Shown: positions 30,817 to 54,627, counted from the first letter of the stretch. The stretch is DNA of 64,000 nt from a virus (IMGVR_UViG_3300010344_001170:15078-79077), one strand, 5' to 3'. The notes: generated from the letters alone by a model not told the origin. A program made the numbers and translations.

Positions 30817-31089
30817 ATGTTACTAGTTGCAGAAATTATTTTAACTATCTTCGCCTGGAAAAAAGGCTGGAGATGGTGGGCTTTAGTACCTGTTGCACTC
30901 GCATTATTAATTGGTCTCTTTATGGGAATGGGTGTTGGCGCATCCGGTGGTGATGTTGACAGTGTCAGAGGTATATCCATTGTTCTCGACGTAATTGCAG
31001 TCATAGCTCTTATAGTTATGGTTACAAAAGGGCCGAAAACTAACGAAGTAGAAGAAACTAAAGATATTGAGAATGCTCCTCGGAGCTAG
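30817..31089 (+). CDS. Small multi-TM membrane protein
   Basis: Three hydrophobic segments. Confidence 0.6.
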   Translation: MLLVAEIILTIFAWKKGWRWWALVPVALALLIGLFMGMGVGASGGDVDSVRGISIVLDVIAVIALIVMVTKGPKTNEVEETKDIENAPRS

Positions 31090-31421
31090 TTATAGAGTAG
31101 GTATGTAAGACGCGGGTTCGAATCCCGCCACCTCCACAGCGAAACAAGTCGCTAAACGAGTTCCAATTTACTCATTCTTAAATTGGTGGTGGAATCCTGA
31201 CCATCGTCCAGTTTCTGGACACCGGTTAGCCCTGGGTTTTCGGAATTGAACCCTTAATCAATTCCAAACGGGGGTGACTTGGCTTTGATTGCATACTGAG
31301 GGAAATAATGAACGTCTCAATGAACGCAATAAACGGCGAACAGTTTAATGAAATGAAAATGGCTGCTTAAGAAGCACCCACTTTCAGGAGACTTGCCGGC
31401 AGCCTTAGTGCCGGCTTTTTT
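31090..31421 (+). ncRNA. ssrA: Circularly permuted (two-piece) tmRNA gene
   Basis: 3' piece (GTATGTA, T-arm GCGGG-TTCGAAT-CCCGC, CACCTCC-A; 31101-31136) precedes 5' piece GGGGGTG (31270). Acceptor stem has G3:U. TGCATAC pairs with GTATGTA. Tag frame 31335-31370 (A)GEQFNEMKMAA*. Confidence 0.9.
31388..31421 (+). terminator. Terminator after tmRNA, duplicated at 31925-31959
   Basis: GCCGGCA/TGCCGGC stem plus T6. Confidence 0.8.
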
Positions 31422-31424
31422 ATT

Positions 31425-31925
31425 ATGAAAAAATTTAATTATTTTTATAAAACTACAAACATCATAAATGAAAAATTTTATTATGGTGTTCATTCTTCTG
31501 ACAAAGATAACGATAATTATCTAGGATCAGGAAAATTATTATTAAAGGCTATCAAAAAATATGGCCGTGAAAATTTTAAAAGAGAAATCATCCAATTTTT
31601 TGATTCTTTTGACGATGCCTTAAATTTTGAAAAACAATTTGTTATCGAAGATATAATAACAAATCCATTATGTTATAATATTAACATTGGAGGTAAAGGA
31701 GGGTCAAAAAGAGGAAGACAATCTCCAATGAAAGGACGAATACATTCTGAAGAAACAAAAACAAAAATTAGTAACTCTGAAAAGGGAAAGTCTAAAAATA
31801 AAGGAATAACTCGCTCAATAGAAACCCGGCAAAAAATTAGCGAGAATAATGGTATGAAAAACCGAGGTTATCTTGTTTCTGGTTCTCGTAATGGAATGTA
31901 TAAGAAAAAATACAATATAATTTAG
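31425..31925 (+). mobile_element. GIY-YIG homing endonuclease flanked by duplicated terminator
   Basis: YFYKTTNIINEKFYYG..YLGSG..KYGRENF; NUMOD3-like HSEETK. Confidence 0.85.
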
Positions 31926-38535: not shown

Positions 38536-38889
38536 ATGGAAAAGTGGTTTAATAAAAATCTTAAATGGATTGCATTAATACTTTTAGTATTATTTGTATT
38601 TAAATCCGCACAAAGTTGTAGTCGTAATATGAAATTGAATATTACTGACAAACAATACATACACACTATAGATTCGTTAAATACAAAATTTAACACTTAC
38701 TATGAATTATCACAGGATAGTATTAAGAAATTAAATTTTGAATTGAAATTGGCTAATGACAGAGCTGCTTCTTCTGAAGATAAAGCAAGGGCAGTTCAAA
38801 GTGCTGTAGAAAAAATTAGAGCCAATACAACGACGACTGTAGTAGTTAAAGGGGCAGAAGAAGTAAAAGACACTAATAACAAAAAATAA
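38536..38889 (+). CDS. Membrane-anchored or lipoprotein-like coiled-coil protein
   Basis: TM, then AQSC, then heptads. Confidence 0.55.
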   Translation: MEKWFNKNLKWIALILLVLFVFKSAQSCSRNMKLNITDKQYIHTIDSLNTKFNTYYELSQDSIKKLNFELKLANDRAASSEDKARAVQSAVEKIRANTTTTVVVKGAEEVKDTNNKK

Positions 38890-39158
38890 TGAAACCATTT
38901 AACGAAGAATTGGCAAGTACATTTTTCACTGTTTTGAAAGAATTTTTAAATTCATCAGACAGAGAAATGGAGCCATATGTTAGAGAGAAAATACAGGAGT
39001 TTGTAAAAGAAGAACATACTCCTGGAGAAATTTATGATTTTTGTGATGAAATTTCTAAACTTCCATGTCAACGAATTTCGGAAAAGATATGTGTCGGTGA
39101 TATTAGTGCTTTTATGCAGTCTGTATTCGACGTAACAAAATATTATGAAAAAGTATGA
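38889..39158 (+). CDS. Hypothetical protein
   Basis: ORF. Confidence 0.55.
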   Translation: MKPFNEELASTFFTVLKEFLNSSDREMEPYVREKIQEFVKEEHTPGEIYDFCDEISKLPCQRISEKICVGDISAFMQSVFDVTKYYEKV

Positions 39159-40054
39159 AATTAGGAAATTTAAAAATTACGAATAAAGGACTTTATTGGG
39201 GGTTAATCATAACCTTTGCCTTTTTGTATTTGTTTGTAGGATTTGTATCGACCTTACATTCAATTACATTCTTTAATTTGGCAAACACAATGAGTCTTGC
39301 AATACTTCTTGGTATAACATATGAAATTGGCCAAGCATCAGTATTGTTTTCGATATTAATGACCAAAAACAAAGATAAATTTCTTCCTTGGGCTTTAATG
39401 TTTCTATTAACGGCATTGCAGGTTACGGCAAACGTTTACGCTTCGTTTAAATATATGGCCACATCTGGAAGCAATGATTGGATGTATTGGCAGAAATCTA
39501 TTCTTATAGGGGTGCAGGCTGAGAATGCGGAAATGTATCAAGTAATTATATCTTGGATTGCAGGCGCGTTACTTCCTATTGTTGCTCTTGGTATGACAGC
39601 TTTAGTGGCACAAAATATTAAATTGATGACTGAGGATTCTCCTGTACAGTCTACAGAAACAGGAGAAATAAATTCAGAAAGAATGGAAGCCATTATCGAA
39701 AATGAAGTTGAAAAAAGAATCAGAGAAAGAGATCAATTAGATGAAGAAGCTGCATCATTATCTCCTCCTGTTGAAGATTTAAAACAACAATATGATAAAT
39801 ACGATAAAGCAAATGATATTCCTGTTAAACTCGAAACACAATCAGGTGTGATACAAGAGCCTATTTCAATTCCTCTTCAAAAAGAACCAGAACCAGAACC
39901 GGAACCAGAAGTTGTTCAAGTTATTAAGCCAGTCAATAAAGTTCAAGGATGGCATTTCCTAAAAGAATTTGTGGATGACGATCATAATGTTTTTCAGAAG
40001 GGAAAATTTATAGGAAACGATCCAACTAAAATTCCAACCTCAAAAAAAGCATAG
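39155..40054 (+). CDS. Four-TM membrane protein with acidic tail; -1 frameshift extension to 40371
   Basis: Four hydrophobic helices; A_AAA_AAA slippery site and hairpin at the 3' end. Confidence 0.75.
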   Translation: MKLGNLKITNKGLYWGLIITFAFLYLFVGFVSTLHSITFFNLANTMSLAILLGITYEIGQASVLFSILMTKNKDKFLPWALMFLLTALQVTANVYASFKYMATSGSNDWMYWQKSILIGVQAENAEMYQVIISWIAGALLPIVALGMTALVAQNIKLMTEDSPVQSTETGEINSERMEAIIENEVEKRIRERDQLDEEAASLSPPVEDLKQQYDKYDKANDIPVKLETQSGVIQEPISIPLQKEPEPEPEPEVVQVIKPVNKVQGWHFLKEFVDDDHNVFQKGKFIGNDPTKIPTSKKA

Positions 40055-41589: not shown

Positions 41590-43254
41590 ATGGCTATAGA
41601 TTTATTTAATAATCCATCAAACGATTATATTTATCCAGGACTTTCCCCTTGCCCAGGTGTAGGAGACGACCAATATCTAGTATGGACTGAGAATGGATTA
41701 GCAATCATAAAAGGGAGTGATGTAATCAGTGAAATTGGATTCAGTGATTTACAAGTTCCTGTTAATTCTTTTAGCAAGCAACAATTGATACTTGGATCCG
41801 GCGAAGTTGTTTTTATTCCTGGATTAACAAAAGGATTATGTAATAAGGCATTAGGATTCTTTTTACCATCATTAGATAGTTCTGATTTAGATTTAAATTC
41901 ATATTTTTTAGGTATTGATTTTTCCATAAATTATTATAAGAATTTTAGTTATACATCAACACATATAGATGTATCAGCTAATTATGAACAAAATTTAGGA
42001 ATTGCTGATGCGTTAAATATCAAATTCGATGAATTAGGAATTAAAGTATCATCATCTTATGATCCAAGCATTCTTTGCTTTGCAGGAACTACAGCTGGTT
42101 ATGAATATTTTATTACGAATGCAACTTTAAGAGTTTATGATACTTCAGAAGCATATGGTTCTCCATTCCCAATTGGAGGTAATGCTCAAACATATGATTT
42201 AATTGAAGACCCATCTGCTTATATTCCTGCATTTAAATATCCTAATACAGCAATGCAAGGAATTGCTCTTAAGGGAATTTATCCAAACGAACAAGCAGAA
42301 TGTGATAAATGGTTCTATTTACACCATGTTACGGATTATGTAATCGTATTTGATCCATATAATGTAAATTATGATACAGAAGTTTCTACTAATTTAGCAT
42401 TATCATATCCTGTAAAATATCCAGGAATTCCTACTATTGCTGATTATCTTACAACAGTTGATCTTTATGGAATAACTATTGATGGATCAGATATGGCTGA
42501 TGTTAGTATAGCAAATTCAATAATAACAAATTCAAATATTGAAACATCGAATATTCGTGATTGTTCAATTGACTTATGTAATCTAACAGAAGTTTATGTA
42601 GCTAACACAGAAATTGAACAAAGCAGTATCGATTTAGGAGAATTAACTAATAGTATCGTAAATAATGGTTCATCTGTTCAGAACAGTATATTAATTAATT
42701 CTTGGATTAATGTTTACAAACTAGTCGTAAATCCATCATCAGGAGAAATAATTTGGGTTACTGACGATGCGTCATTTGTAAATGTCGTTGTTAATGGAGG
42801 AGAAATTTGGGATTCATCTATTAATAATGCAACTCTTTATGATGTTTCATTGTATAATTGCTGGATTGAAGATTCTTCTGTATCAGGATGTACATTTCAC
42901 AATTGTGCATTCGATTCAAGAACTATTGTAGAAGATACAGTAGACATTATGATGGATCCATCCATAGCTTGTGAATTTGATATTGTTCAAGATACTTCAA
43001 TATTCTATCTAAGACGTAGAAGAAAAATTGAAATTGGAATGAGCGGATGTAGTGTTGAAGACTTAATGAGTGCTGGAGATTATTTGAATTTAGTAACAAA
43101 TAGAGGATGGTGGAAAAAAGTTGGAGATATTTACATTTGGATTTCATCTCCAGATTGTGAAGGTGATTGTTTAAACAAAAACTTAATAGAAGGATTTTAT
43201 GTTTATAATCCGCATGAATTTACAATGCAAATCGAATATATGATTATAGTATGA
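41590..43254 (+). CDS. Probable structural protein with pentapeptide-like beta-solenoid
   Basis: Five-residue periodicity (NSIIT NSNIE TSNIR DCSID). Confidence 0.5.
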   Translation: MAIDLFNNPSNDYIYPGLSPCPGVGDDQYLVWTENGLAIIKGSDVISEIGFSDLQVPVNSFSKQQLILGSGEVVFIPGLTKGLCNKALGFFLPSLDSSDLDLNSYFLGIDFSINYYKNFSYTSTHIDVSANYEQNLGIADALNIKFDELGIKVSSSYDPSILCFAGTTAGYEYFITNATLRVYDTSEAYGSPFPIGGNAQTYDLIEDPSAYIPAFKYPNTAMQGIALKGIYPNEQAECDKWFYLHHVTDYVIVFDPYNVNYDTEVSTNLALSYPVKYPGIPTIADYLTTVDLYGITIDGSDMADVSIANSIITNSNIETSNIRDCSIDLCNLTEVYVANTEIEQSSIDLGELTNSIVNNGSSVQNSILINSWINVYKLVVNPSSGEIIWVTDDASFVNVVVNGGEIWDSSINNATLYDVSLYNCWIEDSSVSGCTFHNCAFDSRTIVEDTVDIMMDPSIACEFDIVQDTSIFYLRRRRKIEIGMSGCSVEDLMSAGDYLNLVTNRGWWKKVGDIYIWISSPDCEGDCLNKNLIEGFYVYNPHEFTMQIEYMIIV

Positions 43255-44387
43255 GAGCACAATTAGTTAAAGAAAATATTCAAACTATTTTAGTTCCTAA
43301 AACTCCTGAAGAACTAGGAGAAGCAAAGGAAAAAGTGCAATTAGTTATGTATCGTATTGAGAAATCATTCAACGAACGATACCCAGAAAATCCTATAACT
43401 GATTTTAATTATTTCTTTGACGGAGGAGGAATTAATTTAACTATTGAGTTTAGAGATCCAATTAAAGATATGAATTTAATAGAAGACATTTTATATCCCT
43501 ATCCACAAATAAGTAACGAAGTAGAAGTATCTGATGAATTTCCATATCAACCACAATCAGAAGAAGAGTTTCCACCTGAAATAGAATATGTTGAAACAAA
43601 TATCGTAAATGTTGTGTTTCCTTTAAGTATTGTTAATGAAAACTGGGGAGGTGGAGGAGTTGGATATGCAGTTTGGGGTGGTGGTACAGGAAGAAATTTT
43701 GGCAACCCTTCAATGAGAGGAGGATTTGCTGGAAGAGGATTTGGCTTTGGCGGATCTATGAATTTATCCGGTGGTCCTAACCTAATGTATACTTATGCTG
43801 TAAAACCATTAAATACAGTTCTGCAACAACCTGCAACACCACAGGATGATGAACAATATATTCATGTTGGTAGTAAAATAAAAGGAAAAATATTAAATAC
43901 AAACAAAGATATTGAAGGACAAATTCTTAGAATAGAAGAAGATGAAGATAACAATATAAAATGGTATGTTGTTCTTGATAAAGAAGGAAGAAAAAGAAAA
44001 GTAGATCCAACAAGTGCTTATCTAGATGAACCAGAACAAATTATAGATCCAAATGTAATGGATATAGCTAATGAGAGTTTTTATCCTACGTTATATGAGA
44101 GAATGACACATGATGAAGCGGCGACGGACGTTGAAGAAAAAGTTAAAAGAAGCAAAAAACTTCCTGCAGAAATTAAAGAAAAGATTTATCCTTTAATTGT
44201 AAAAGGAGAAACTGAATACAGAGATGGTAAAGTGTTTAGACTTCGTTATCCAAAATCTAAAGGATGCGATTTAGGTGCCGATAAAAATGGATTCTTTGTA
44301 TTCACACATCGTGCTAGATCAAAATCAAAAGAAGATATAGATAAAATTCCTGAAAAGGACATTAAATTTATAAAAAGCACAGGATGA
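43251..44387 (+). CDS. Multi-domain protein with shared leader (MRAQLVKENIQTILVPKTPEEL) and Gly-rich linker
   Basis: ORF. Confidence 0.65.
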   Translation: MRAQLVKENIQTILVPKTPEELGEAKEKVQLVMYRIEKSFNERYPENPITDFNYFFDGGGINLTIEFRDPIKDMNLIEDILYPYPQISNEVEVSDEFPYQPQSEEEFPPEIEYVETNIVNVVFPLSIVNENWGGGGVGYAVWGGGTGRNFGNPSMRGGFAGRGFGFGGSMNLSGGPNLMYTYAVKPLNTVLQQPATPQDDEQYIHVGSKIKGKILNTNKDIEGQILRIEEDEDNNIKWYVVLDKEGRKRKVDPTSAYLDEPEQIIDPNVMDIANESFYPTLYERMTHDEAATDVEEKVKRSKKLPAEIKEKIYPLIVKGETEYRDGKVFRLRYPKSKGCDLGADKNGFFVFTHRARSKSKEDIDKIPEKDIKFIKSTG

Positions 44388-44686
44388 AATTAGTAAAAGA
44401 AAGTTTGAATGAACAAATGGTATATAATTTTCATGAAATTCCATCAGACGAAGAACGCGTAAACAAAAGATTACGTGATCTTTTAGTAGATATTATAATG
44501 AATGAGCGAGGTGTTTCTGAAAAATCTTTTTCAGAAGTGGACCAGATAATACAAGAGGTGAAAACTTTTTGTGATAGTAAGCTGATAATATATACAAAAG
44601 CAAGATTGTATGATCAGGCAAAGAAACGATTACAATTTTTGGCCGAAAAAATTTATGAAAGATATTTTAACTTAAAATCAAAATAA
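44384..44686 (+). CDS. Hypothetical protein with shared leader (MKLVKESLNE)
   Basis: ORF. Confidence 0.65.
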   Translation: MKLVKESLNEQMVYNFHEIPSDEERVNKRLRDLLVDIIMNERGVSEKSFSEVDQIIQEVKTFCDSKLIIYTKARLYDQAKKRLQFLAEKIYERYFNLKSK

Positions 44687-44744
44687 TCAATTAATGCAAA
44701 ATTAGTGTGGAAAACCAGCACGTAAATTACATTATGAATATAAA

Positions 44745-46643
44745 GTGGTTTTTAATTTAAAAAGAGGCCTGAGTCTCTTTTTCTTTTTATGTTGGACGAT
44801 CTTATTGAAAGCGGAAATCTATTACGTTTCTCCAACAGGAAACGACAAAAATCCAGGAACATACAGCAATCCATGGAAGACCATAGCTTATGCCTCATCC
44901 CAAGCAACTTCAGGAGATGTAATTAATTTAAAACCAGGTACTTTTCTAGAACTTTTTCCAAGCTTAATAAAGCCTAATGTCAACCTTGAGGGGGTAGGCC
45001 CTGGATCTATTATTAAATCTAATGTAGAAAATGGCCCCACAATCATTCTTATGTCCCAGGAGGGAGCATATGGTAATCAGTATATTGCCAATTTGACTAT
45101 TGACGGAGATAATCTAAAGGGATATGGGGGAATTCTTGTAAGTGGAAGAAGTAATGTGAGCATTCATCATTGCAATTTTAAAAATTTAAGAAATTATGCT
45201 GCAGTATTTAATGCAAGTACTGATACTGCAAACTACGAACCTAGATTTTTCTTTGGAATTGATACAGCTACTCACTTAGAGCCAACAGTTTATGCAAATG
45301 GAAATAAATTCTTTCAAAACACCATTGAAAACTGCGCTATTTTTTATCCAGCAAAAAGAGCATTAGGTGCTTTAATGATTGGGGGTCAAAATGAAATAAA
45401 CATTTTTGATAATAATATTAGTCAGGATCAAAGAGAAGTTGGAAATAATGGTTATCCAATAAAACATTATAGAGGTGGATATAATAAGAATCCAAAAATA
45501 TTCAGAAATACTTTAATAAAAACCCCAACAATTTTATCAAGAGATGAATTCTTTTTAGGTTGTGCTATTGAACTTTGGCATACGATCGGTGGTGAAATTT
45601 ATGAAAACAAATTAAGAGGCGGAATGTTTTTTGTTTTTCTTAAGGACATAAAAATTCATCATAATACAATTGGATATGACTCATTAACAGTTGTTCCTAA
45701 AACTGGAATTTACGTTTCTGGAGATGTGAATAATGTTACTATAAACAACAATTATTTCGAAAATTTAGCATTACAAATAGCATTTAGTCCTTTTGCAGCT
45801 ACCAAATTAGATAGTGTTTTCATACACACTAATGTCATGTTTAATATTGGTGTTTCCACAGATGAATGGTGGGGATGCGGTATTAGTTTTGCAGGATTAA
45901 CTTCAGATACAGTTTCTAATCTTCATGTTGTTGGCAACACAATGATTGCAAATCCCGGAAGTAGAAATACAAGAATCGGGCTTTATTTACCAACTACAGG
46001 TTACGCAACGAATATCAATATTCGAAATAATATAATGTCAGGATTTAGATATGCAACTATTTTTGCTGCAGGTCCTGATCGTACTTTAGATTTGCTTTCT
46101 ATACAAAACAATATTTTGTGGGACAACACATCAGATACAACTAAAACTTACTGTACAAGTGATTCAGCATATTTTACAAATATAAAACCCCCTCTTAGAT
46201 ATGTTGACGAAAATAATTTTTATCAAGATCCTATGTTTATTGATGATCAATTTCATTTGTCATCAAGTTCTCCTGCTCTTAATAATGGAATTTATATTCC
46301 ATGGATAGATAAGGATTTTGAAGATAATTTAATTATGAATCCTCCTGATATTGGGGCTCTTGCCTTCAATATTCTGATCATTGATGAGCCAGTTATTGCC
46401 GATGAAAATGGCTTATTAATTTATCCAGTTCCCGTAACAAATTATTTTACATTAGTTATCAAAGATCCCATGTTTCAACAGGCGAATATGGAGATATACG
46501 ATTTTGCAGGAAAATTAATTTATCGTGAAAAAATAATTGAAAATATTACTCATTTTTCACAAATAAATTGGAAGGCCGGCTTATATATATTAAAAGTACA
46601 AACGAGTAGGGAACTATTGGTATCTAAAATTATAGTTCTCTGA
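44745..46643 (+). CDS. Secreted right-handed beta-helix protein with T9SS type A C-terminal domain
   Basis: Signal peptide (..LLKA/EIYYVSPTGND); beta-helix repeats; IYPVP..IYDFAGK..AGLYILKV..SKIIVL. Confidence 0.85.
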   Translation: MVFNLKRGLSLFFFLCWTILLKAEIYYVSPTGNDKNPGTYSNPWKTIAYASSQATSGDVINLKPGTFLELFPSLIKPNVNLEGVGPGSIIKSNVENGPTIILMSQEGAYGNQYIANLTIDGDNLKGYGGILVSGRSNVSIHHCNFKNLRNYAAVFNASTDTANYEPRFFFGIDTATHLEPTVYANGNKFFQNTIENCAIFYPAKRALGALMIGGQNEINIFDNNISQDQREVGNNGYPIKHYRGGYNKNPKIFRNTLIKTPTILSRDEFFLGCAIELWHTIGGEIYENKLRGGMFFVFLKDIKIHHNTIGYDSLTVVPKTGIYVSGDVNNVTINNNYFENLALQIAFSPFAATKLDSVFIHTNVMFNIGVSTDEWWGCGISFAGLTSDTVSNLHVVGNTMIANPGSRNTRIGLYLPTTGYATNINIRNNIMSGFRYATIFAAGPDRTLDLLSIQNNILWDNTSDTTKTYCTSDSAYFTNIKPPLRYVDENNFYQDPMFIDDQFHLSSSSPALNNGIYIPWIDKDFEDNLIMNPPDIGALAFNILIIDEPVIADENGLLIYPVPVTNYFTLVIKDPMFQQANMEIYDFAGKLIYREKIIENITHFSQINWKAGLYILKVQTSRELLVSKIIVL

Positions 46644-49600
46644 TGATCAAAAAGCTCGTATTTGTCTTAACGTTTCTTCTAACATTTTTAACTAATTTTG
46701 CGCAGATGGCTGACTTAACATACCAAGGCCAAACGTATGTCAATAATGAGACAGGCGTATGGACGGGGGTGAATGTTCCCAGAACGTCACCAACGAACTT
46801 TAAATTTTTATATAACTCTTTAACATCTGTTAATGTTCAGGGTTATATGTTGCAAGCTGGAGATGAAGGCGTTAATGCATACAATGGAAACTTAAATGGT
46901 GAACTTATTCAAGGAAACCAATTCATTTGGAATGGAAATTTTAGTGGTTTAGGAACCTCAATGACAATTACTCATGGAGTGTTTACAGGTTGTAATATAA
47001 ATGTAAACATTAAGCATAATTATTTGTACCGAGTTCCTATGGGAATCATACGAAAATCAGCAAGTAGTATGGTCAACACTTCAGGTGGAGTTTCGTACAA
47101 TATTCTTAAAACATTTAATGTTGGTGGTGTAGTAAAAGGGATGAGTGGAGTAAAATGGTATAATAACACATTTTATCAAGACAGACCAACATATAGTAGT
47201 TCAGATCCAACAGCTGGAACATGGAGAGGAGCAATAGACGTATATACAAATACTGATGTTACTCCTAATTCTATTTCTCATGGAACGAAAATTAAAAATA
47301 ATATATTCTATTCCAAATACAAAACATTAGCCATAAATGTAATGGATGCAGCAAGTTTAACAGACTTTGAATGTGATTATAATGTTTATTGGGTAGAAGA
47401 AGGAGATCATAAACCTGTATTTAATGCAGGCGGCACGACAAAAACATGGGATCAATGGAGAGCTATGGGATACGATGCACATTCTGTTGTCATGAATCCT
47501 AATTTTATTGATTTTGTTAATTTTGTTCCAGCAACACGTTTAGATTATGGAACAGATTTAGGAAGTGAATTCAATACAGGTTTATCAACTACTGCTGTAT
47601 GGACAGTAGGTTCTATGCCTGCAACGACAGTTCAAAATGGAACTTGGCAAGTTGGGGCACGAATTTATGCAGCAACCCCTGTAGTTCCAACTAGTCCATA
47701 TTTTGTTGCTCCAAATGGAAATGATGCAACGGGAGATGGAACAATTGATAAACCTTGGTTTACTCTTAATAAGGCATGGTCTTATGTAAAAGCAGGAGAA
47801 ACTGTTTACATGCGTGGGGGCACATATGCTTATCATCAACAACAAAGATTAACCGGAAAAAATGGAACTTCAACATCAAGAATAAAACTTTTAGCATACA
47901 ATGGAGAACGTCCAATTATTACAAGAGGAGATCCTTACACTTATCCTGGATGGCCACACGCTATAATTTATTTTACAGCAAATTATGCTGATGTAAAGGG
48001 ATTAGATGTTTCAGGTGTATCTCAGCCAGCAAGTTCCCCAGATATGCATGAACCATTTAGAGCTTATGGATGTAATTATTGTACATTTGAATTACTTGAT
48101 ATTCATCATAATGGAGCTGGATTTCAATTAACAAATAGCAATCAATGTTATGTTATAAATAGTGATTTCCACCACAATCAAGATCCTTATACAACAAGTG
48201 CTGGAGCTTACGGAAATGCAGATGGTATGGGTATTGATGGAACTAATCCAAATGCAATAAACTATGTTATAGGATGCCGTTTCTGGTATAACTCAGATGA
48301 TGGTATTGATGGATGGGCAGAAGAAGGAACGATTGTTATTGAAAATTGCTGGGCTTTCTGGAATGGATTTATTCCTGATACTTGGAATAAAGGTGGTGAC
48401 GGAAGTGGATTCAAACTTGGAAAAACAGATGCTATAGTTCCAACAATTGTTAAGAGAAAATTATACAACAACATTTCATTCCAAAATAAAAAATGGGGAT
48501 TTTTAGATAATGGAATTCAATGTAATGCTGAATTATACAATAATACTGCTATAGAAAATGGTTATAAAAATTTAGATTCGTGGGCAGGAGGATTTAATTT
48601 TACTTTAGTTCCTACAACAAAATTCTTTATAAAAAATAATATCGCTTATAAAAACAACATAACACAAGTAAGTATTGGAGATGACACGAATGTCGATCAT
48701 AACACATGGGATTTGTCAGTAACTGTTACTGATGCTGATTTTGTAAGCATAATTCCTACAGGTGTAGATGGTCCAAGACAAGCAGATGGAAGTTTACCAA
48801 ATCTTACTTATTTAAAACTTGCGCAAGGTTCTGATTTAATCAACAAAGGTGTTGATGTAGGTCTGCCTTATAAAAGCACAGCTCCTGATTTAGGTGCGTA
48901 TGAATCCGATTATTCATCAGTTCCTGTAAGTCCTTATTTCATTGCTCCAAATGGTAATGATACAACAGGCGATGGAACAATAGATCATCCTTGGTTTACA
49001 ATAAACAAAGCGTGGAGTTATATAAAACCTGGCGAAATAATTTACATGAGAGGGGGAACTTATTATTATAATGAGACTCAAAATCTTACTGTAAAAACAG
49101 GGACCGTGGGAAATATGCTTAAACTTTATGCATATCAAGGTGAAAGAGTAATCATTCGTCCTTCGGCAACATATACTGCTACAAGAGGGGTTTATGTTCG
49201 TTCAAACTTTGTTCATATGAAAGGACCTATGGAAATTTGTTATTATGAACAAATGACTCCAACTGAATGGTATAATGGTATAACAGCTTATAGTTCAAAT
49301 GATTGTATCTTTGAACAAATTGATGTTCACCATAATGGATTTGGATTCTCAATTGGTGGTATTTCAACAAGAAACTTAGTATTGAATTCTGATTTTCATC
49401 ATAATTACGATCCTATTACAGCGATTACAACTAATGTTCCTTATGGAGGTTCAGATGGTTTAACCATTCGTGTAGCTGACCCATCTTCAGTAAACACTAT
49501 GAAAGGATGCCGTATGTGGAACAATAGTGATGATGGTTTCGATGGATGGTATAATTCTGGAATGTTAATATTTGAAGATTGCTGGTCATTCAACAATGGT

Positions 49601-51349
49601 TATCGTGAAGATGGAATTACAGAAGGAGGAGACGGTAATGGATTCAAAATGGGTCCTTTAGTAGCAGATCCTTGGACTGGATTCGAAACTGAACACAAAC
49701 GTACAATGACCAATTGTATTGCATTTAATAACAGAATGAATGGATTTGATCAAAATGCGGCCTTATGTGTTATGCATTTTTACAATTGTGCTGCATTCGG
49801 AAATGGCAATCATGGATTTGTGATGAACAACAATTCTACTATTTACATGATTGCGCGTAACAATATATCATACAAAAATGCTAAAGGAGCTGCATACTTC
49901 ACTTCTATTTCTACTGTTGATCATAATACATTCACATATAATAATGGAGTTAATCCAGCTTATTCTGTAACTGATGCTGATTTTGTTAGCATAAATCCAG
50001 CAGGAATGGATGGCGCTCGTCAAGCTGATGGAAGTTTACCAAACCTTAATTTCTTGAAACTAGCTCAAGGTTCCGACTTAATTGAAACTGGAATCGACGT
50101 TGGTTTACCTTATAAAGGGATTGCACCTGATTTAGGGCCCTTTGAATCTAATTATAATGCAACTTTACCAATATTAAATACAACAACTATGACTGATGTA
50201 ACGAAGAATTCGGCTGTTACTGGAGGAAATGTCACTAGTGACGGAGGTTCTCCAATTATAGCTAAGGGAGTATGTTGGAATACATCTCCGAATCCTACAC
50301 TTTCTAATTTCTTCACTGATGAAGGAGCAGGAAGTGGAATTTTTACAAGTAATCTCACTGGCTTGACACCTAATACAACGTATTATGTTCGGGCGTATGC
50401 TACCAACGCTGTTGGGACCTCTTATGGAGAGGAATTATCATTTAATACACTAAAAGAATTATTCTTAGCAACTGTTACAACCAAAGCAGTTACAGATATA
50501 ACACAAATATCTGCAGTTTGCGGTGGTAATGTAACTTCTGATGGAAATGCAGAGGTTACTTCTAGAGGAGTTTGCTGGAATACAACTGGAAATCCTACAA
50601 CTGGTGATAACATTGTTTATAGTGGTAATGGTGTTGGAGAATTTACTAGCACATTAGCTAGCTTATCTCCAAATACTACATACTATGCCAGAGCATTTGC
50701 TATCAATAGTGTAGGTATTGCTTATGGAGAAGAAGTTATTTTCACAACACTTAAACAAATGCAATTACCTGTTGTTACAACTTCAGCCATCATAAACATT
50801 ACACAAACATCTGCGCAAGGTGGGGGTAATGTAACTTTTGATGGATTTGATTTTGTTGCGGCGAAAGGAGTGGTTTGGAACACTTCACCAAGTCCTACTA
50901 TTGAAGATAATAAAACCAATGATGGAACTGGAACTGGAGAATTCTCCAGTTCCTTTTCAGGTTTATCACCAAATACATATTACTATGCAAGAGCCTATGC
51001 AGAGAATTCGGTAGGAATAGCTTATGGAGATGAAAAATCATTTAAAACTGAAGAAGTTGTTAATGAAATATTAGTATATCCGAATCCAGTTCCAATATAT
51101 ACAGATAGATTTACCATAGAAGTCTTAATTCCTAATTTTGATTCAACACGTGTTTACATTTACGATATTATAGGAAAATTACGTTATACAGAGAAAATGA
51201 ATTGTTGTATTAGAAATTTCTTTGAAGGTCACGATAGAAATCAAGCGATTATAAATAAAAACAAAGCTAAATTAACTCCTGGAGTTTATATTATAAAGGT
51301 TATTAATAAGAGAAAAGTTTATGCCACTGGTAAATTAATTATATTGTAA
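46643..51349 (+). CDS. Secreted modular polysaccharide lyase: beta-helix, 2x PL9, 3x FN3-like repeats, T9SS CTD
   Basis: Signal peptide; NSDDGID..GFKLG and NSDDGFD..GFKMG; three PNTTYY.RAYA.N..G..YG repeats; VYPNP..IYDIIGK..PGVYIIKV..KLIIL. Confidence 0.85.
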   Translation: MIKKLVFVLTFLLTFLTNFAQMADLTYQGQTYVNNETGVWTGVNVPRTSPTNFKFLYNSLTSVNVQGYMLQAGDEGVNAYNGNLNGELIQGNQFIWNGNFSGLGTSMTITHGVFTGCNINVNIKHNYLYRVPMGIIRKSASSMVNTSGGVSYNILKTFNVGGVVKGMSGVKWYNNTFYQDRPTYSSSDPTAGTWRGAIDVYTNTDVTPNSISHGTKIKNNIFYSKYKTLAINVMDAASLTDFECDYNVYWVEEGDHKPVFNAGGTTKTWDQWRAMGYDAHSVVMNPNFIDFVNFVPATRLDYGTDLGSEFNTGLSTTAVWTVGSMPATTVQNGTWQVGARIYAATPVVPTSPYFVAPNGNDATGDGTIDKPWFTLNKAWSYVKAGETVYMRGGTYAYHQQQRLTGKNGTSTSRIKLLAYNGERPIITRGDPYTYPGWPHAIIYFTANYADVKGLDVSGVSQPASSPDMHEPFRAYGCNYCTFELLDIHHNGAGFQLTNSNQCYVINSDFHHNQDPYTTSAGAYGNADGMGIDGTNPNAINYVIGCRFWYNSDDGIDGWAEEGTIVIENCWAFWNGFIPDTWNKGGDGSGFKLGKTDAIVPTIVKRKLYNNISFQNKKWGFLDNGIQCNAELYNNTAIENGYKNLDSWAGGFNFTLVPTTKFFIKNNIAYKNNITQVSIGDDTNVDHNTWDLSVTVTDADFVSIIPTGVDGPRQADGSLPNLTYLKLAQGSDLINKGVDVGLPYKSTAPDLGAYESDYSSVPVSPYFIAPNGNDTTGDGTIDHPWFTINKAWSYIKPGEIIYMRGGTYYYNETQNLTVKTGTVGNMLKLYAYQGERVIIRPSATYTATRGVYVRSNFVHMKGPMEICYYEQMTPTEWYNGITAYSSNDCIFEQIDVHHNGFGFSIGGISTRNLVLNSDFHHNYDPITAITTNVPYGGSDGLTIRVADPSSVNTMKGCRMWNNSDDGFDGWYNSGMLIFEDCWSFNNGYREDGITEGGDGNGFKMGPLVADPWTGFETEHKRTMTNCIAFNNRMNGFDQNAALCVMHFYNCAAFGNGNHGFVMNNNSTIYMIARNNISYKNAKGAAYFTSISTVDHNTFTYNNGVNPAYSVTDADFVSINPAGMDGARQADGSLPNLNFLKLAQGSDLIETGIDVGLPYKGIAPDLGPFESNYNATLPILNTTTMTDVTKNSAVTGGNVTSDGGSPIIAKGVCWNTSPNPTLSNFFTDEGAGSGIFTSNLTGLTPNTTYYVRAYATNAVGTSYGEELSFNTLKELFLATVTTKAVTDITQISAVCGGNVTSDGNAEVTSRGVCWNTTGNPTTGDNIVYSGNGVGEFTSTLASLSPNTTYYARAFAINSVGIAYGEEVIFTTLKQMQLPVVTTSAIINITQTSAQGGGNVTFDGFDFVAAKGVVWNTSPSPTIEDNKTNDGTGTGEFSSSFSGLSPNTYYYARAYAENSVGIAYGDEKSFKTEEVVNEILVYPNPVPIYTDRFTIEVLIPNFDSTRVYIYDIIGKLRYTEKMNCCIRNFFEGHDRNQAIINKNKAKLTPGVYIIKVINKRKVYATGKLIIL

Positions 51350-51350
51350 A

Positions 51351-51377
51351 AAGGAGGTCTTAAACCTCCTTTTTTTC
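51351..51377. terminator. Terminator between convergent genes
   Basis: AAGGAGG/CCTCCTT stem plus T run. Confidence 0.7.
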
Positions 51378-52190
51378 CTTTAGCCAAGGAACCTCAAATT
51401 TGTGAATTTTAACATCGAGCTTTCTTACATCCACATTATTTTCTGGAACATTAAATAGCATTATAGCGGTTTCTCCTTCTTTCCAATTTTCCCATCTTTC
51501 AACAGCTTTATTAATTAATTCTTTTGGAAAGTGATTCTTTGCACTCCAATTAACTAATTTCTTTCTAATATCTCTTCGAATCCAAGCTGCGTGACCCATT
51601 CTAATCACTTCATCAGGAAATACATATGTTCCTAAATTTGATGGGTTTAAAATCCTTCTAGTAGGATCTGTAGGTCCTGGGGCTGGTCCATTATACGTAT
51701 ATTTAAAGAATGTAGAATGAATTCCAGGAACAAATGGTCTAAATGGATAAACTAAATAATGTTCAAAATCTTTATAGTAGTTTACATAACTCCAATATGT
51801 AATACCCCATCCTATTTCGTTTATTTGTTTTTTGGCTTCTCGAAATTGGTCCTTATCATAAAATTCGTCTGCATCAATATTTAAAACATGGGAGCATCCT
51901 CGTTGTGCAGCCAATTCAATTCCTTGATTTCTTTTTTCACATTCTTGTTCTCGAGAATATTTGTTGAAATTTGGTTTAAATTCAATTAGTTCATCAACAA
52001 GGCCAAGTGACTTTAAACGCATCAACTCATCCATGTCTGTTTTTGACATTGGATTCCCCCAATAAGATTTCTTTTGGTAAATAGCGGCAACCCAATCTAC
52101 TTGATCTCGAATTTCAGTAATTAATTGATCTAATAATTCGGACGCGTCAAATGCATTTATTGTTAGCCCTAATTTTTTAATTTTTCCCAT
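51360..52190 (-). CDS. GT-A fold (GT2-like) glycosyltransferase
   Basis: KRNQGIELA..SHVLNIDADEFY (DxD motif). Confidence 0.7.
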   Translation of the reverse strand: MGKIKKLGLTINAFDASELLDQLITEIRDQVDWVAAIYQKKSYWGNPMSKTDMDELMRLKSLGLVDELIEFKPNFNKYSREQECEKRNQGIELAAQRGCSHVLNIDADEFYDKDQFREAKKQINEIGWGITYWSYVNYYKDFEHYLVYPFRPFVPGIHSTFFKYTYNGPAPGPTDPTRRILNPSNLGTYVFPDEVIRMGHAAWIRRDIRKKLVNWSAKNHFPKELINKAVERWENWKEGETAIMLFNVPENNVDVRKLDVKIHKFEVPWLKEKKEV

Positions 52191-53940: not shown

Positions 53941-54627
53941 TTATTGATTATATGATTTAATGATCTTTTTGTTTTTAAGAGTTTCACTTATTTTTCGTTT
54001 AACTTCTTCTGACCATCTTTTCCCAGTATTATGAGGGGACTTACCGAACATAGGATTTTTACTTCCTTTTTTAGATTCAGATAATTTTGATTTATGTTCT
54101 TTAGAAAATCTTTTCCCTTTGTGAGATTCTTTCATTTTTTCAATTGTCTCCTTTGTGTGTTTTCTACCTTTATTTTTTTCTCGAATTTTTCTTTTTGTTT
54201 CTTCTGAATGTTGCTTATTATAAAAACCATTTTTCTCACCAGAAATTGCTTCACTAATTTTTTGACGAACTTCAGGTTTATTTAGTGTTTCGGTTACAGA
54301 TTTTCTAATTTTTTGTTTTGTTATTTCGCTGTGTACGCCCCAAGATTTTCCAGTTATTCCAGAACCGCCAATTTCAGAAATATTATATCCATTTGGAGAT
54401 AAAGTATTTAGAGTGTGAATATAGTGTTCCTCTAGACGTCGTGCTTCTTCAATAGATTCGCATTCTTGTAAAATTTCTCTCTTAAAATTATTTCTTCCAT
54501 ATTTTCGTATTGCTAAATGAAGAGCTTTGCCACTCCCTAAATAATTATCATTTAAATTATTAGTATAATGACTTCCGATATACTGTTTGCCATTGACTAA
54601 ATTAGTAGTTAGATATACAAAATTCAT
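53941..54627 (-). mobile_element. GIY-YIG homing endonuclease
   Basis: [21 protein letters not shown]; several HSEETK NUMOD3-like repeats. Confidence 0.85.

Follow-up and report, generated by a model that had tools for sequence, protein, structure and literature searches.

Two megaphage genes, one for a tandem PL9 lyase, with the predicted architecture of type IX secretion cargo

What use might a bacteriophage have for proteins that look like cargo of a bacterial secretion system? The question is raised by two adjoining genes, P0001 and P0002, at positions 44,745 to 51,349 of IMGVR_UViG_3300010344_001170:15078-79077, a 64,000-nucleotide stretch of viral DNA (hereafter the window) that represents bases 15078-79077 of an IMG/VR virus record, itself 79 kb long and estimated to be 20% complete. 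Each gene encodes a beta-helical protein with a signal-peptide-like N-terminus and a C-terminal domain (CTD) of the kind carried by type IX secretion system (T9SS) cargo of type A; the features of the locus are collected in Table 1. With moderate confidence, we hold that these are resident genes of a megaphage, that their products are exported through the Sec and T9SS machinery of the host and that they act on glycan outside the infected cell.

Type A cargo of the T9SS is taken by Sec into the periplasm and from there, in a CTD-dependent manner, to the T9SS translocon, with removal of the CTD. The N-termini of P0001 and P0002 each run from a basic n-region through a hydrophobic core to a small-residue site (A/E or A/Q, the slash marking the predicted junction), and our hydropathy measure places the proteins 2nd and 5th of the 72 open reading frames (ORFs) of at least 100 amino acids in the window. 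It is therefore likely, from these sequence features, that both begin with a Sec signal peptide. At the other end, the CTD of P0001 matched the whole of the TIGR04183 model (42.3 bits against a cut-off of 23) and exceeded the cut-off of PF18962 (40.6 bits against 27), with the motifs YPVP, IYDxxGK, GxYIxKV and KII in place. Its AlphaFold2 (AF2) model predicts seven strands at residues 557-631 following a low-confidence linker at 543-554, such that the CTD is modelled as a compact beta-sandwich set off from its passenger. The CTD of P0002 scored 24.8 bits with TIGR04183, just above the cut-off, and 22.2 bits with PF18962, under the cut-off. In a genome-frame search the two CTDs reached 45.8 and 29.8 bits, and every orthologue of P0002 lies above the TIGR04183 cut-off (28.6-35.5 bits). 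When ten phage CTDs were aligned, the motifs YP(N/V)P, IYDxxGK, GxYIxKV and K(I/V)I were found in common. The initial annotation of this locus had proposed two coupled genes with signal peptides and T9SS type A domains, and its reading is borne out by the ORFs, by a TGATG overlap of the P0001 stop (TGA) with the P0002 start (ATG) and by the position of the TIGR04183 matches, the signal peptides being likely on the hydropathy heuristic; in the search with CTD models that it had called for, both proteins exceeded the cut-off of TIGR04183 and P0001 alone that of PF18962. Together these features support the view that both proteins have, in silico, the complete make-up of T9SS type A cargo.

The same tags recur across the relatives of the two proteins. 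P0001 is a member of a small family, with 55 homologues among 5.8 billion proteins, and the closest eleven, all from the phage clade, possess both a predicted signal peptide and a CTD (11/11). Signal peptides are retained even where sequences have diverged and lengths changed in frame, and in relatives of P0002 the junction reads ...NA/QTVLTYQGQTY. Furthermore, at least six related phage contigs have the P0001 gene at this position, in each case with both tags. In L007, a syntenic IMG/VR contig of 259,840 bases rated 64% complete, the flanks are 80-95% identical to the window, P0001 is 75% and P0002 62% identical, and a different beta-helix stands in place of the first PL9 module. Further variation of the locus is seen among L004, L005 and L007, one relative having the P0001 gene only and another the P0002 gene only. 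In distant relatives P0001 is 54-58% identical, level with flanking phage genes at 35-57%; P0005 lies within a block syntenic with the window, and P0010 and P0011 adjoin a thymidylate synthase gene near a tail sheath gene, the P0011 contig being 345 kb long with a gene for a Gp23-type capsid protein. From this clade-wide conservation we infer that P0001 is a long-standing gene of a megaphage clade, with P0002 as a variable cassette. One run (X1) contained loose ends at 46548-46855 and 50883-50919; a joint in it from 46855 to 50896 had only 21 letters on its shorter side, and we set it aside as a weak hint of a cassette-less variant rather than a finding. Cellular relatives of P0001, found in a genome scan with a narrower alignment (the family-wide alignment being too diverse), are 29-37% identical and come entirely from Bacteroidota (Bacteroidales, Bacteroidia, Chitinophagales and Ferruginibacter); for one of them the bin name points to activated sludge.

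That the locus belongs to phage DNA is evident from its surroundings. Among the genes of the window are those for a portal, a tail sheath, a helicase, a thymidylate synthase (ThyA) and a GIY-YIG endonuclease, and the tail sheath is nearest to those of Prevotella Lak megaphages (43-46% identity). GC content is even over the cargo locus, with a composition like that of the flanks. Contigs of an independent 2023 wastewater run bridge the junctions (44561-45217, 45460-46868 and 50716-52007), one 11.8-kb contig from another run spans 43200-50757, and the stretch is present in activated-sludge, wastewater and digester runs from 18 studies. The initial placing of these genes between phage-type genes, which a chimeric assembly at the junctions would have refuted, withstood the comparison with bridging contigs and with related megaphage contigs. 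We take the source to be a fragment of a Lak-related, myovirus-type megaphage of a Bacteroidota host in activated sludge, with a genome of roughly 400 kb, a size that follows from the rating of L007.

The longer protein, P0002, is by its domains a tandem lyase of family PL9. PF22842 matched it in two stretches at 138.4 bits (cut-off 25.2; E=3.7e-40), and NF041899, the PelN equivalog model, likewise in two stretches at E=6e-123; its score of 410.8 bits is below the equivalog cut-off of 740, so P0002 is related to PelN without being an orthologue. Module 1 matched Pel9A (1RU4) at E=2.3e-34 and the rhamnogalacturonan I (RG-I) lyase BT4170 (5OLQ) at E=1.8e-31, and when laid on Pel9A its DDGID motif falls on chain positions 208/209/212 and the lysine of GFKLG on K248. 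The two modules (346-757 and 758-1171) are 50.4% identical, with SDG, DDGFD and GFKMG of module 2 in register. The catalytic core of PL9 comprises the aspartates of the Ca-1 site and a lysine base (PMC6627557), and the alignments support P0002 being a tandem PL9 lyase with the catalytic residues intact in both modules, from which activity may be expected. The duplicated modules with DDGxD and GFKxG motifs had been placed to within a few bases by the initial annotation, which also recognized the three Fn3-like repeats, here three stretches of about 100 residues that give weak fn3 matches and match the N-terminal repeat of NF049889 (BT0360); a weak BT_4170-like_C match was found as well. Modules, repeats and CTD stood. 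That annotation had overlooked a third beta-helix domain at the N-terminus, as well as the clade-wide conservation of P0001 and the tag-less crAss-like counterpart described below; pectin as a substrate is a family label only.

This N-terminal domain (AF2 pLDDT 92.9) gave no Pfam match for residues 22-345 and only weak PDB matches by Foldseek (GH136/PL6), with no specific family. Its own family comprises 470 representative proteins at E<=1e-3 (50% clustering), in which the domain occurs alone or in N-terminal, internal or C-terminal positions, often together with a T9SS CTD; among its short relatives, 15 of the 28 aligned end in Por_Secre_tail. The AF2 model of P0001 (pLDDT 88) shows a beta-helix, a linker and a seven-strand sandwich. 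Its top Foldseek matches are GH136, Pel9A, RbmB and tailspikes, all at low TM-scores, which makes a family assignment impossible. The N-domain family and the P0001 family are candidates for new families of carbohydrate-active enzymes.

A counterpart of P0002 lacking both tags exists in nature. Residues 22-1384 of P0002 are colinear, at 43% identity, with residues 1-1401 of P0065, a protein of 1646 residues encoded in the tail-fibre region of a 100.7-kb crAss-like phage contig, near an auxiliary-capsid-like gene of crAss type and beside genes whose PHROG matches are to tail-fibre and virion-structural proteins. P0065 starts exactly at the predicted mature N-terminus of P0002 and has neither a hydrophobic N-terminus nor a CTD; several further tag-less proteins like it exist. 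The same enzyme body thus occurs with and without export tags and, judging by the alignments, seems to be delivered in two ways, which speaks for the tags of the megaphage being functional additions. The location of the tag-less body in a tail-fibre region also makes a bacterial surface polymer a more likely substrate than plant pectin.

How would these proteins work? Given both tags and the established biology of type A cargo, each product would be carried over the inner membrane by Sec and fold in the periplasm; the CTD would then hand the enzyme to the T9SS translocon of the host and be removed, leaving the enzyme released or fixed on the cell surface. Once outside, the paired PL9 modules would use Ca-dependent beta-elimination to cut a polysaccharide that contains uronic acid, and the N-domain of P0002 and the beta-helix of P0001 would probably act on or bind neighbouring glycan structures. 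By analogy, the substrate is most likely a polymer of bacterial capsule, extracellular polymeric substances or floc matrix rather than plant pectin. Cleavage of a bacterial sheath polymer, that of Sphaerotilus, is known from a member of PL9 (PMC11412304). The likeliest benefit, and the weakest inference of the explanation, is that the infected cell would be rid of its surface layer, so that progeny escape more easily, re-adsorption to debris is prevented or a receptor is lost. The export of such proteins is in keeping with bacterial chromosomes, which encode both PL9 and the N-domain as T9SS cargo.

Several points weigh against this account. P0001 carries no recognized catalytic signature, and the PL9 motifs are absent from it. 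Signal peptides were judged by a hydropathy heuristic together with AF2 helices, and the CTD of P0002 is borderline, being little above the one cut-off and under that of Pfam, with an insertion. Met22 of P0002 (ATG at 46706) lies at the predicted mature N-terminus, is kept by close relatives and corresponds in the alignment to Met1 of the crAss-like proteins that lack tags; its equivalent is taken as the start by gene callers in P0057 and P0072, and Met22 may, on this alignment, be a second start giving a non-exported form, or a relic of the original start. To our knowledge, T9SS export of a phage protein has no experimental demonstration in any phage. A T9SS in the host is only assumed, and both substrate and purpose are tentative proposals made by analogy.

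It is tempting to connect these observations in an account of one depolymerase body with two routes, which we regard as speculative and rather unlikely as a whole: in crAss-like phages the tag-less body may be virion-borne, and in the megaphage clade a signal peptide would have been grafted before Met22 and a CTD added behind the stalk repeats, such that the enzyme is displayed or shed before lysis. Were this true and both starts used, one gene would provide an exported form and a cytoplasmic or virion form. Furthermore, the clade-wide conservation of P0001 would then single out host-surface remodelling through the T9SS as a core step, not an accessory one, in megaphage infection of Bacteroidota.

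The cargo pair could instead be an auxiliary metabolic cassette, in which secreted pectin or rhamnogalacturonan lyases harvest plant polysaccharide from sludge, which would sustain a long megaphage infection. Among solved structures the best matches are indeed a pectate lyase (Pel9A) and an RG-I lyase (BT4170), the weak BT_4170-like_C match points the same way, bacterial homologues lie near fucosidase, GH95 and rhamnose genes, and megaphages have space for such genes. We nevertheless think it unlikely. Identity to characterized PL9 enzymes is low, and the score falls short of the PelN equivalog cut-off; the closest architectural relatives are phage proteins from a tail-fibre region; the flanking genes scanned include none for uptake or downstream catabolism; and extracellular products are a public good from which a cell close to lysis would gain little.

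A different explanation dispenses with export altogether. Beta-helix depolymerases are typical tail spikes, and P0001 and P0002 might be virion-borne or lysis-released depolymerases (tail spikes or fibres) in which the hydrophobic N-terminus and the Ig-like C-terminal domain do not serve export, translation beginning at an internal start or the CTD acting as a binding module. The tailspikes among the Foldseek matches, the colinear tag-less protein in a crAss-like tail-fibre region, the behaviour of Met22 in the alignment and in the gene calls of two relatives, and a Por_Secre_tail domain placed internally, not at the C-terminus, in the 735-kb phage LR756501.1 all speak in its favour. It is, however, at odds with the 11/11 phage-clade homologues of P0001, in which the signal peptide stands directly before the beta-helix cap with no alternative methionine, and with the P0002 relatives beginning ...NAQTVLTYQ, which have no internal methionine. 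In every orthologue the CTD lies at the extreme C-terminus with all type A motifs. Moreover, the proteins have no N-terminal particle-binding domain and carry a signal-peptide-like N-terminus directly before the beta-helix, where a tailspike would be cytoplasmic and have no export signal; P0001 gave no match to PHROG families at E<=1e-5. We hold this explanation, too, to be unlikely.

Finally, an assembly chimera, or a recently captured bacterial passenger (moron) without a phage role, is suggested by domains typical of Bacteroidota chromosomes, by the lack of P0002 in some relatives and by the loose ends and weak joint of run X1 that point to variants, but deserves next to no credence given that independent contigs bridge both junctions, that the locus is syntenic and diverged in several phage contigs, that its composition is like that of the flanks and that the stretch recurs in runs from 18 studies.

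Export of resident megaphage genes by the host therefore remains the reading that we prefer, and it has a precedent. The initial annotation knew of no such description in a phage; this does not hold, as three genes for T9SS type A cargo (an endoglucanase, a GH39 and a PA14 protein) were reported from 'Cryophage', a 76-kb Bacteroidetes phage, by Bellas et al. (2020, Nat Commun; PMC7468147), who proposed a hijack of the host system. In both cases carbohydrate-active proteins encoded by a phage terminate in a type A sorting domain of the T9SS, use of the host T9SS is proposed and cargo varies between phage variants, P0002 being likewise a swappable cassette. The present phage differs in being, by its description, an unrelated myovirus-type megaphage of about 400 kb from activated sludge; its cargo is a tandem PL9 lyase plus two further beta-helices; and P0001 is fixed in position across the clade rather than flexible. 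Our literature search found no paper beyond Bellas et al. linking the T9SS with huge or jumbo phages, with viral lyases or auxiliary metabolic genes, or with viral contigs. Phage T9SS cargo is thus a kind of gene already reported; what is new is that one cargo gene is conserved over a whole clade of megaphages, that a lyase with three beta-helices serves as predicted cargo, and that a counterpart without tags occurs in nature.

P0002 shares the right-handed beta-helix, the Ca-site aspartates and the lysine base with Pel9A of Dickeya and BT4170 of Bacteroides thetaiotaomicron, and differs from them in being phage-encoded, with two modules per chain, to which a further beta-helix at the N-terminus, Fn3-like stalk repeats and a T9SS CTD are joined. 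With the tag-less crAss-like proteins, such as P0065, it shares about 1400 colinear residues comprising the N-domain, two PL9 modules and the GVCW repeats; those proteins start at the equivalent of Met22, have no signal peptide and end in Laminin_G_3-type domains in place of a CTD. Chromosomal T9SS cargo of Bacteroidota with PL9 or the N-domain (such as P0118, P0182 and proteins of Tangfeifania and of Bacteroidetes metagenome-assembled genomes) resembles P0002 in its signal peptide, catalytic domains, Fn3-like repeats and type A CTD, but is no more than 45-55% identical, mostly of single modules and set in a sugar-utilization context.

Searches beyond the clade gave little. Among deposited phages, the cargo locus had no match by blastn and the CTD of P0001 none by tblastn at E<=0.01; a CTD-profile scan of IMG/VR, whose pattern is too specific, returned the same relatives only; and Lak-A1 had no TIGR04183 match. 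As a possible parallel we considered the 735-kb phage LR756501.1 (L022) and rejected it as not clean, since of its two TIGR04183 matches one is internal and the other lies at the cut-off in an ORF of 136 residues. At 652754-655969 this phage encodes a protein of 446 residues with a signal-peptide-like start, an internal Por_Secre_tail at 84-154 and a C-terminal Fib_succ_major, an unusual order.

Table 1 Features of the cargo locus and its immediate neighbours, with positions counted from the first letter of the window
Feature	Position	Strand	Description
Gene 1 (P0001)	44745..46643	+	GTG start, 632 aa: signal peptide, right-handed beta-helix without assigned CAZy family, T9SS type A CTD
Signal-peptide-like N-terminus of P0001	44745..44813	+	residues 1-23, ...LLKA/EIYY; hydropathy heuristic, AF2 helix 3-20
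T9SS type A CTD of P0001	46419..46637	+	residues 559-631 of 632; TIGR04183, PF18962
Gene 2 (P0002)	46643..51349	+	ATG start, 1568 aa: signal peptide, N-terminal beta-helix, two PL9 modules, three Fn3-like repeats, CTD
Signal-peptide-like N-terminus of P0002	46643..46702	+	residues 1-20, ...NFA/QMADL; hydropathy heuristic, AF2 helix 2-17
N-terminal domain of P0002	46706..47677	+	residues 22-345; unnamed right-handed beta-helix family; AF2 pLDDT 92.9
PL9 module 1	47696..48907	+	residues 352-755; NADG 525, DDGID 552-556, Lys591 in GFKLG (589)
PL9 module 2	48929..50149	+	residues 763-1169; SDG 937, DDGFD 963-967, Lys1002 in GFKMG (1000)
Three Fn3-like 'GVCW' stalk repeats	50168..51067	+	residues 1176-1475, ~100 aa each
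T9SS type A CTD of P0002	51074..51343	+	residues 1478-1567 of 1568; ~20-residue insertion
Terminator-like hairpin and T run	51348..51374	+	between convergent genes; 3' of P0002, overlapping stop of convergent gene
Convergent neighbour	51360..52190	-	276 aa, possibly GT2-like; adjoins cargo locus in 5/7 related contigs examined

P0001 and P0002 are the final two genes of a plus-strand block that closes with the terminator-like hairpin. Contigs matching P0002 at 99% identity or more were found in two activated-sludge RNA libraries, where DNA carry-over is possible; they are confined to P0002 and downstream genes, with none over 43200-47123, a gap that we do not read as silence. As DNA may occur in such libraries, this coverage is compatible with transcription and no proof of it. 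Promoter-like sites in the sequence were no more frequent than in shuffled sequence. A separate motif, ATATATAAA, has 15 sites in the window against 4.3 expected (e.g. 25686, 54633(-), 57282(-) and 63083(-)), many of them 0-25 nt upstream of start codons, and GAATATAAAG stands immediately 5' of the GTG start of P0001. The two genes directly upstream of P0001 (43251-44686, plus strand) start with MRAQLVKEN and MKLVKES, where the cargo genes have signal peptides instead.

On the far side of the hairpin, the convergent neighbour is 69-95% identical in L004, L005, L007, L008 and L016, in which it is always adjacent to the cargo locus. It contains a DADE motif and a match to PF00535 at E=0.012, below cut-off, and its Atlas neighbours are viral, with Glycos_transf_2 in 32% of one cluster; from these features a phage glycosyltransferase is a possibility, and such an enzyme would suit a locus for surface remodelling. 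Elsewhere in the window, a GIY-YIG/NUMOD3 homing endonuclease gene (53941-54627, minus strand) overlaps the start of the thymidylate synthase gene and is 40% identical in a close relative, against 86-89% for its flanks. A permuted tmRNA with the tag peptide GEQFNEMKMAA was located by ARAGORN at 31047-31461 (plus strand). Two plus-strand ORFs, at 38536-38889 and 39155-40054, have strongly hydrophobic N-terminal segments, the first with ...KSAQS/C, which may be a lipoprotein-like site.

If the proposed export is true, phages of Bacteroidota would use the T9SS of their host to act on the cell exterior during infection, in a manner distinct from virion depolymerases and from lysis enzymes. The tagged and untagged forms of one enzyme body provide a natural pair for testing the function of the tags. 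Beyond the infected cell, secreted lyases of abundant megaphages could affect the floc matrix and the turnover of capsules in activated sludge.

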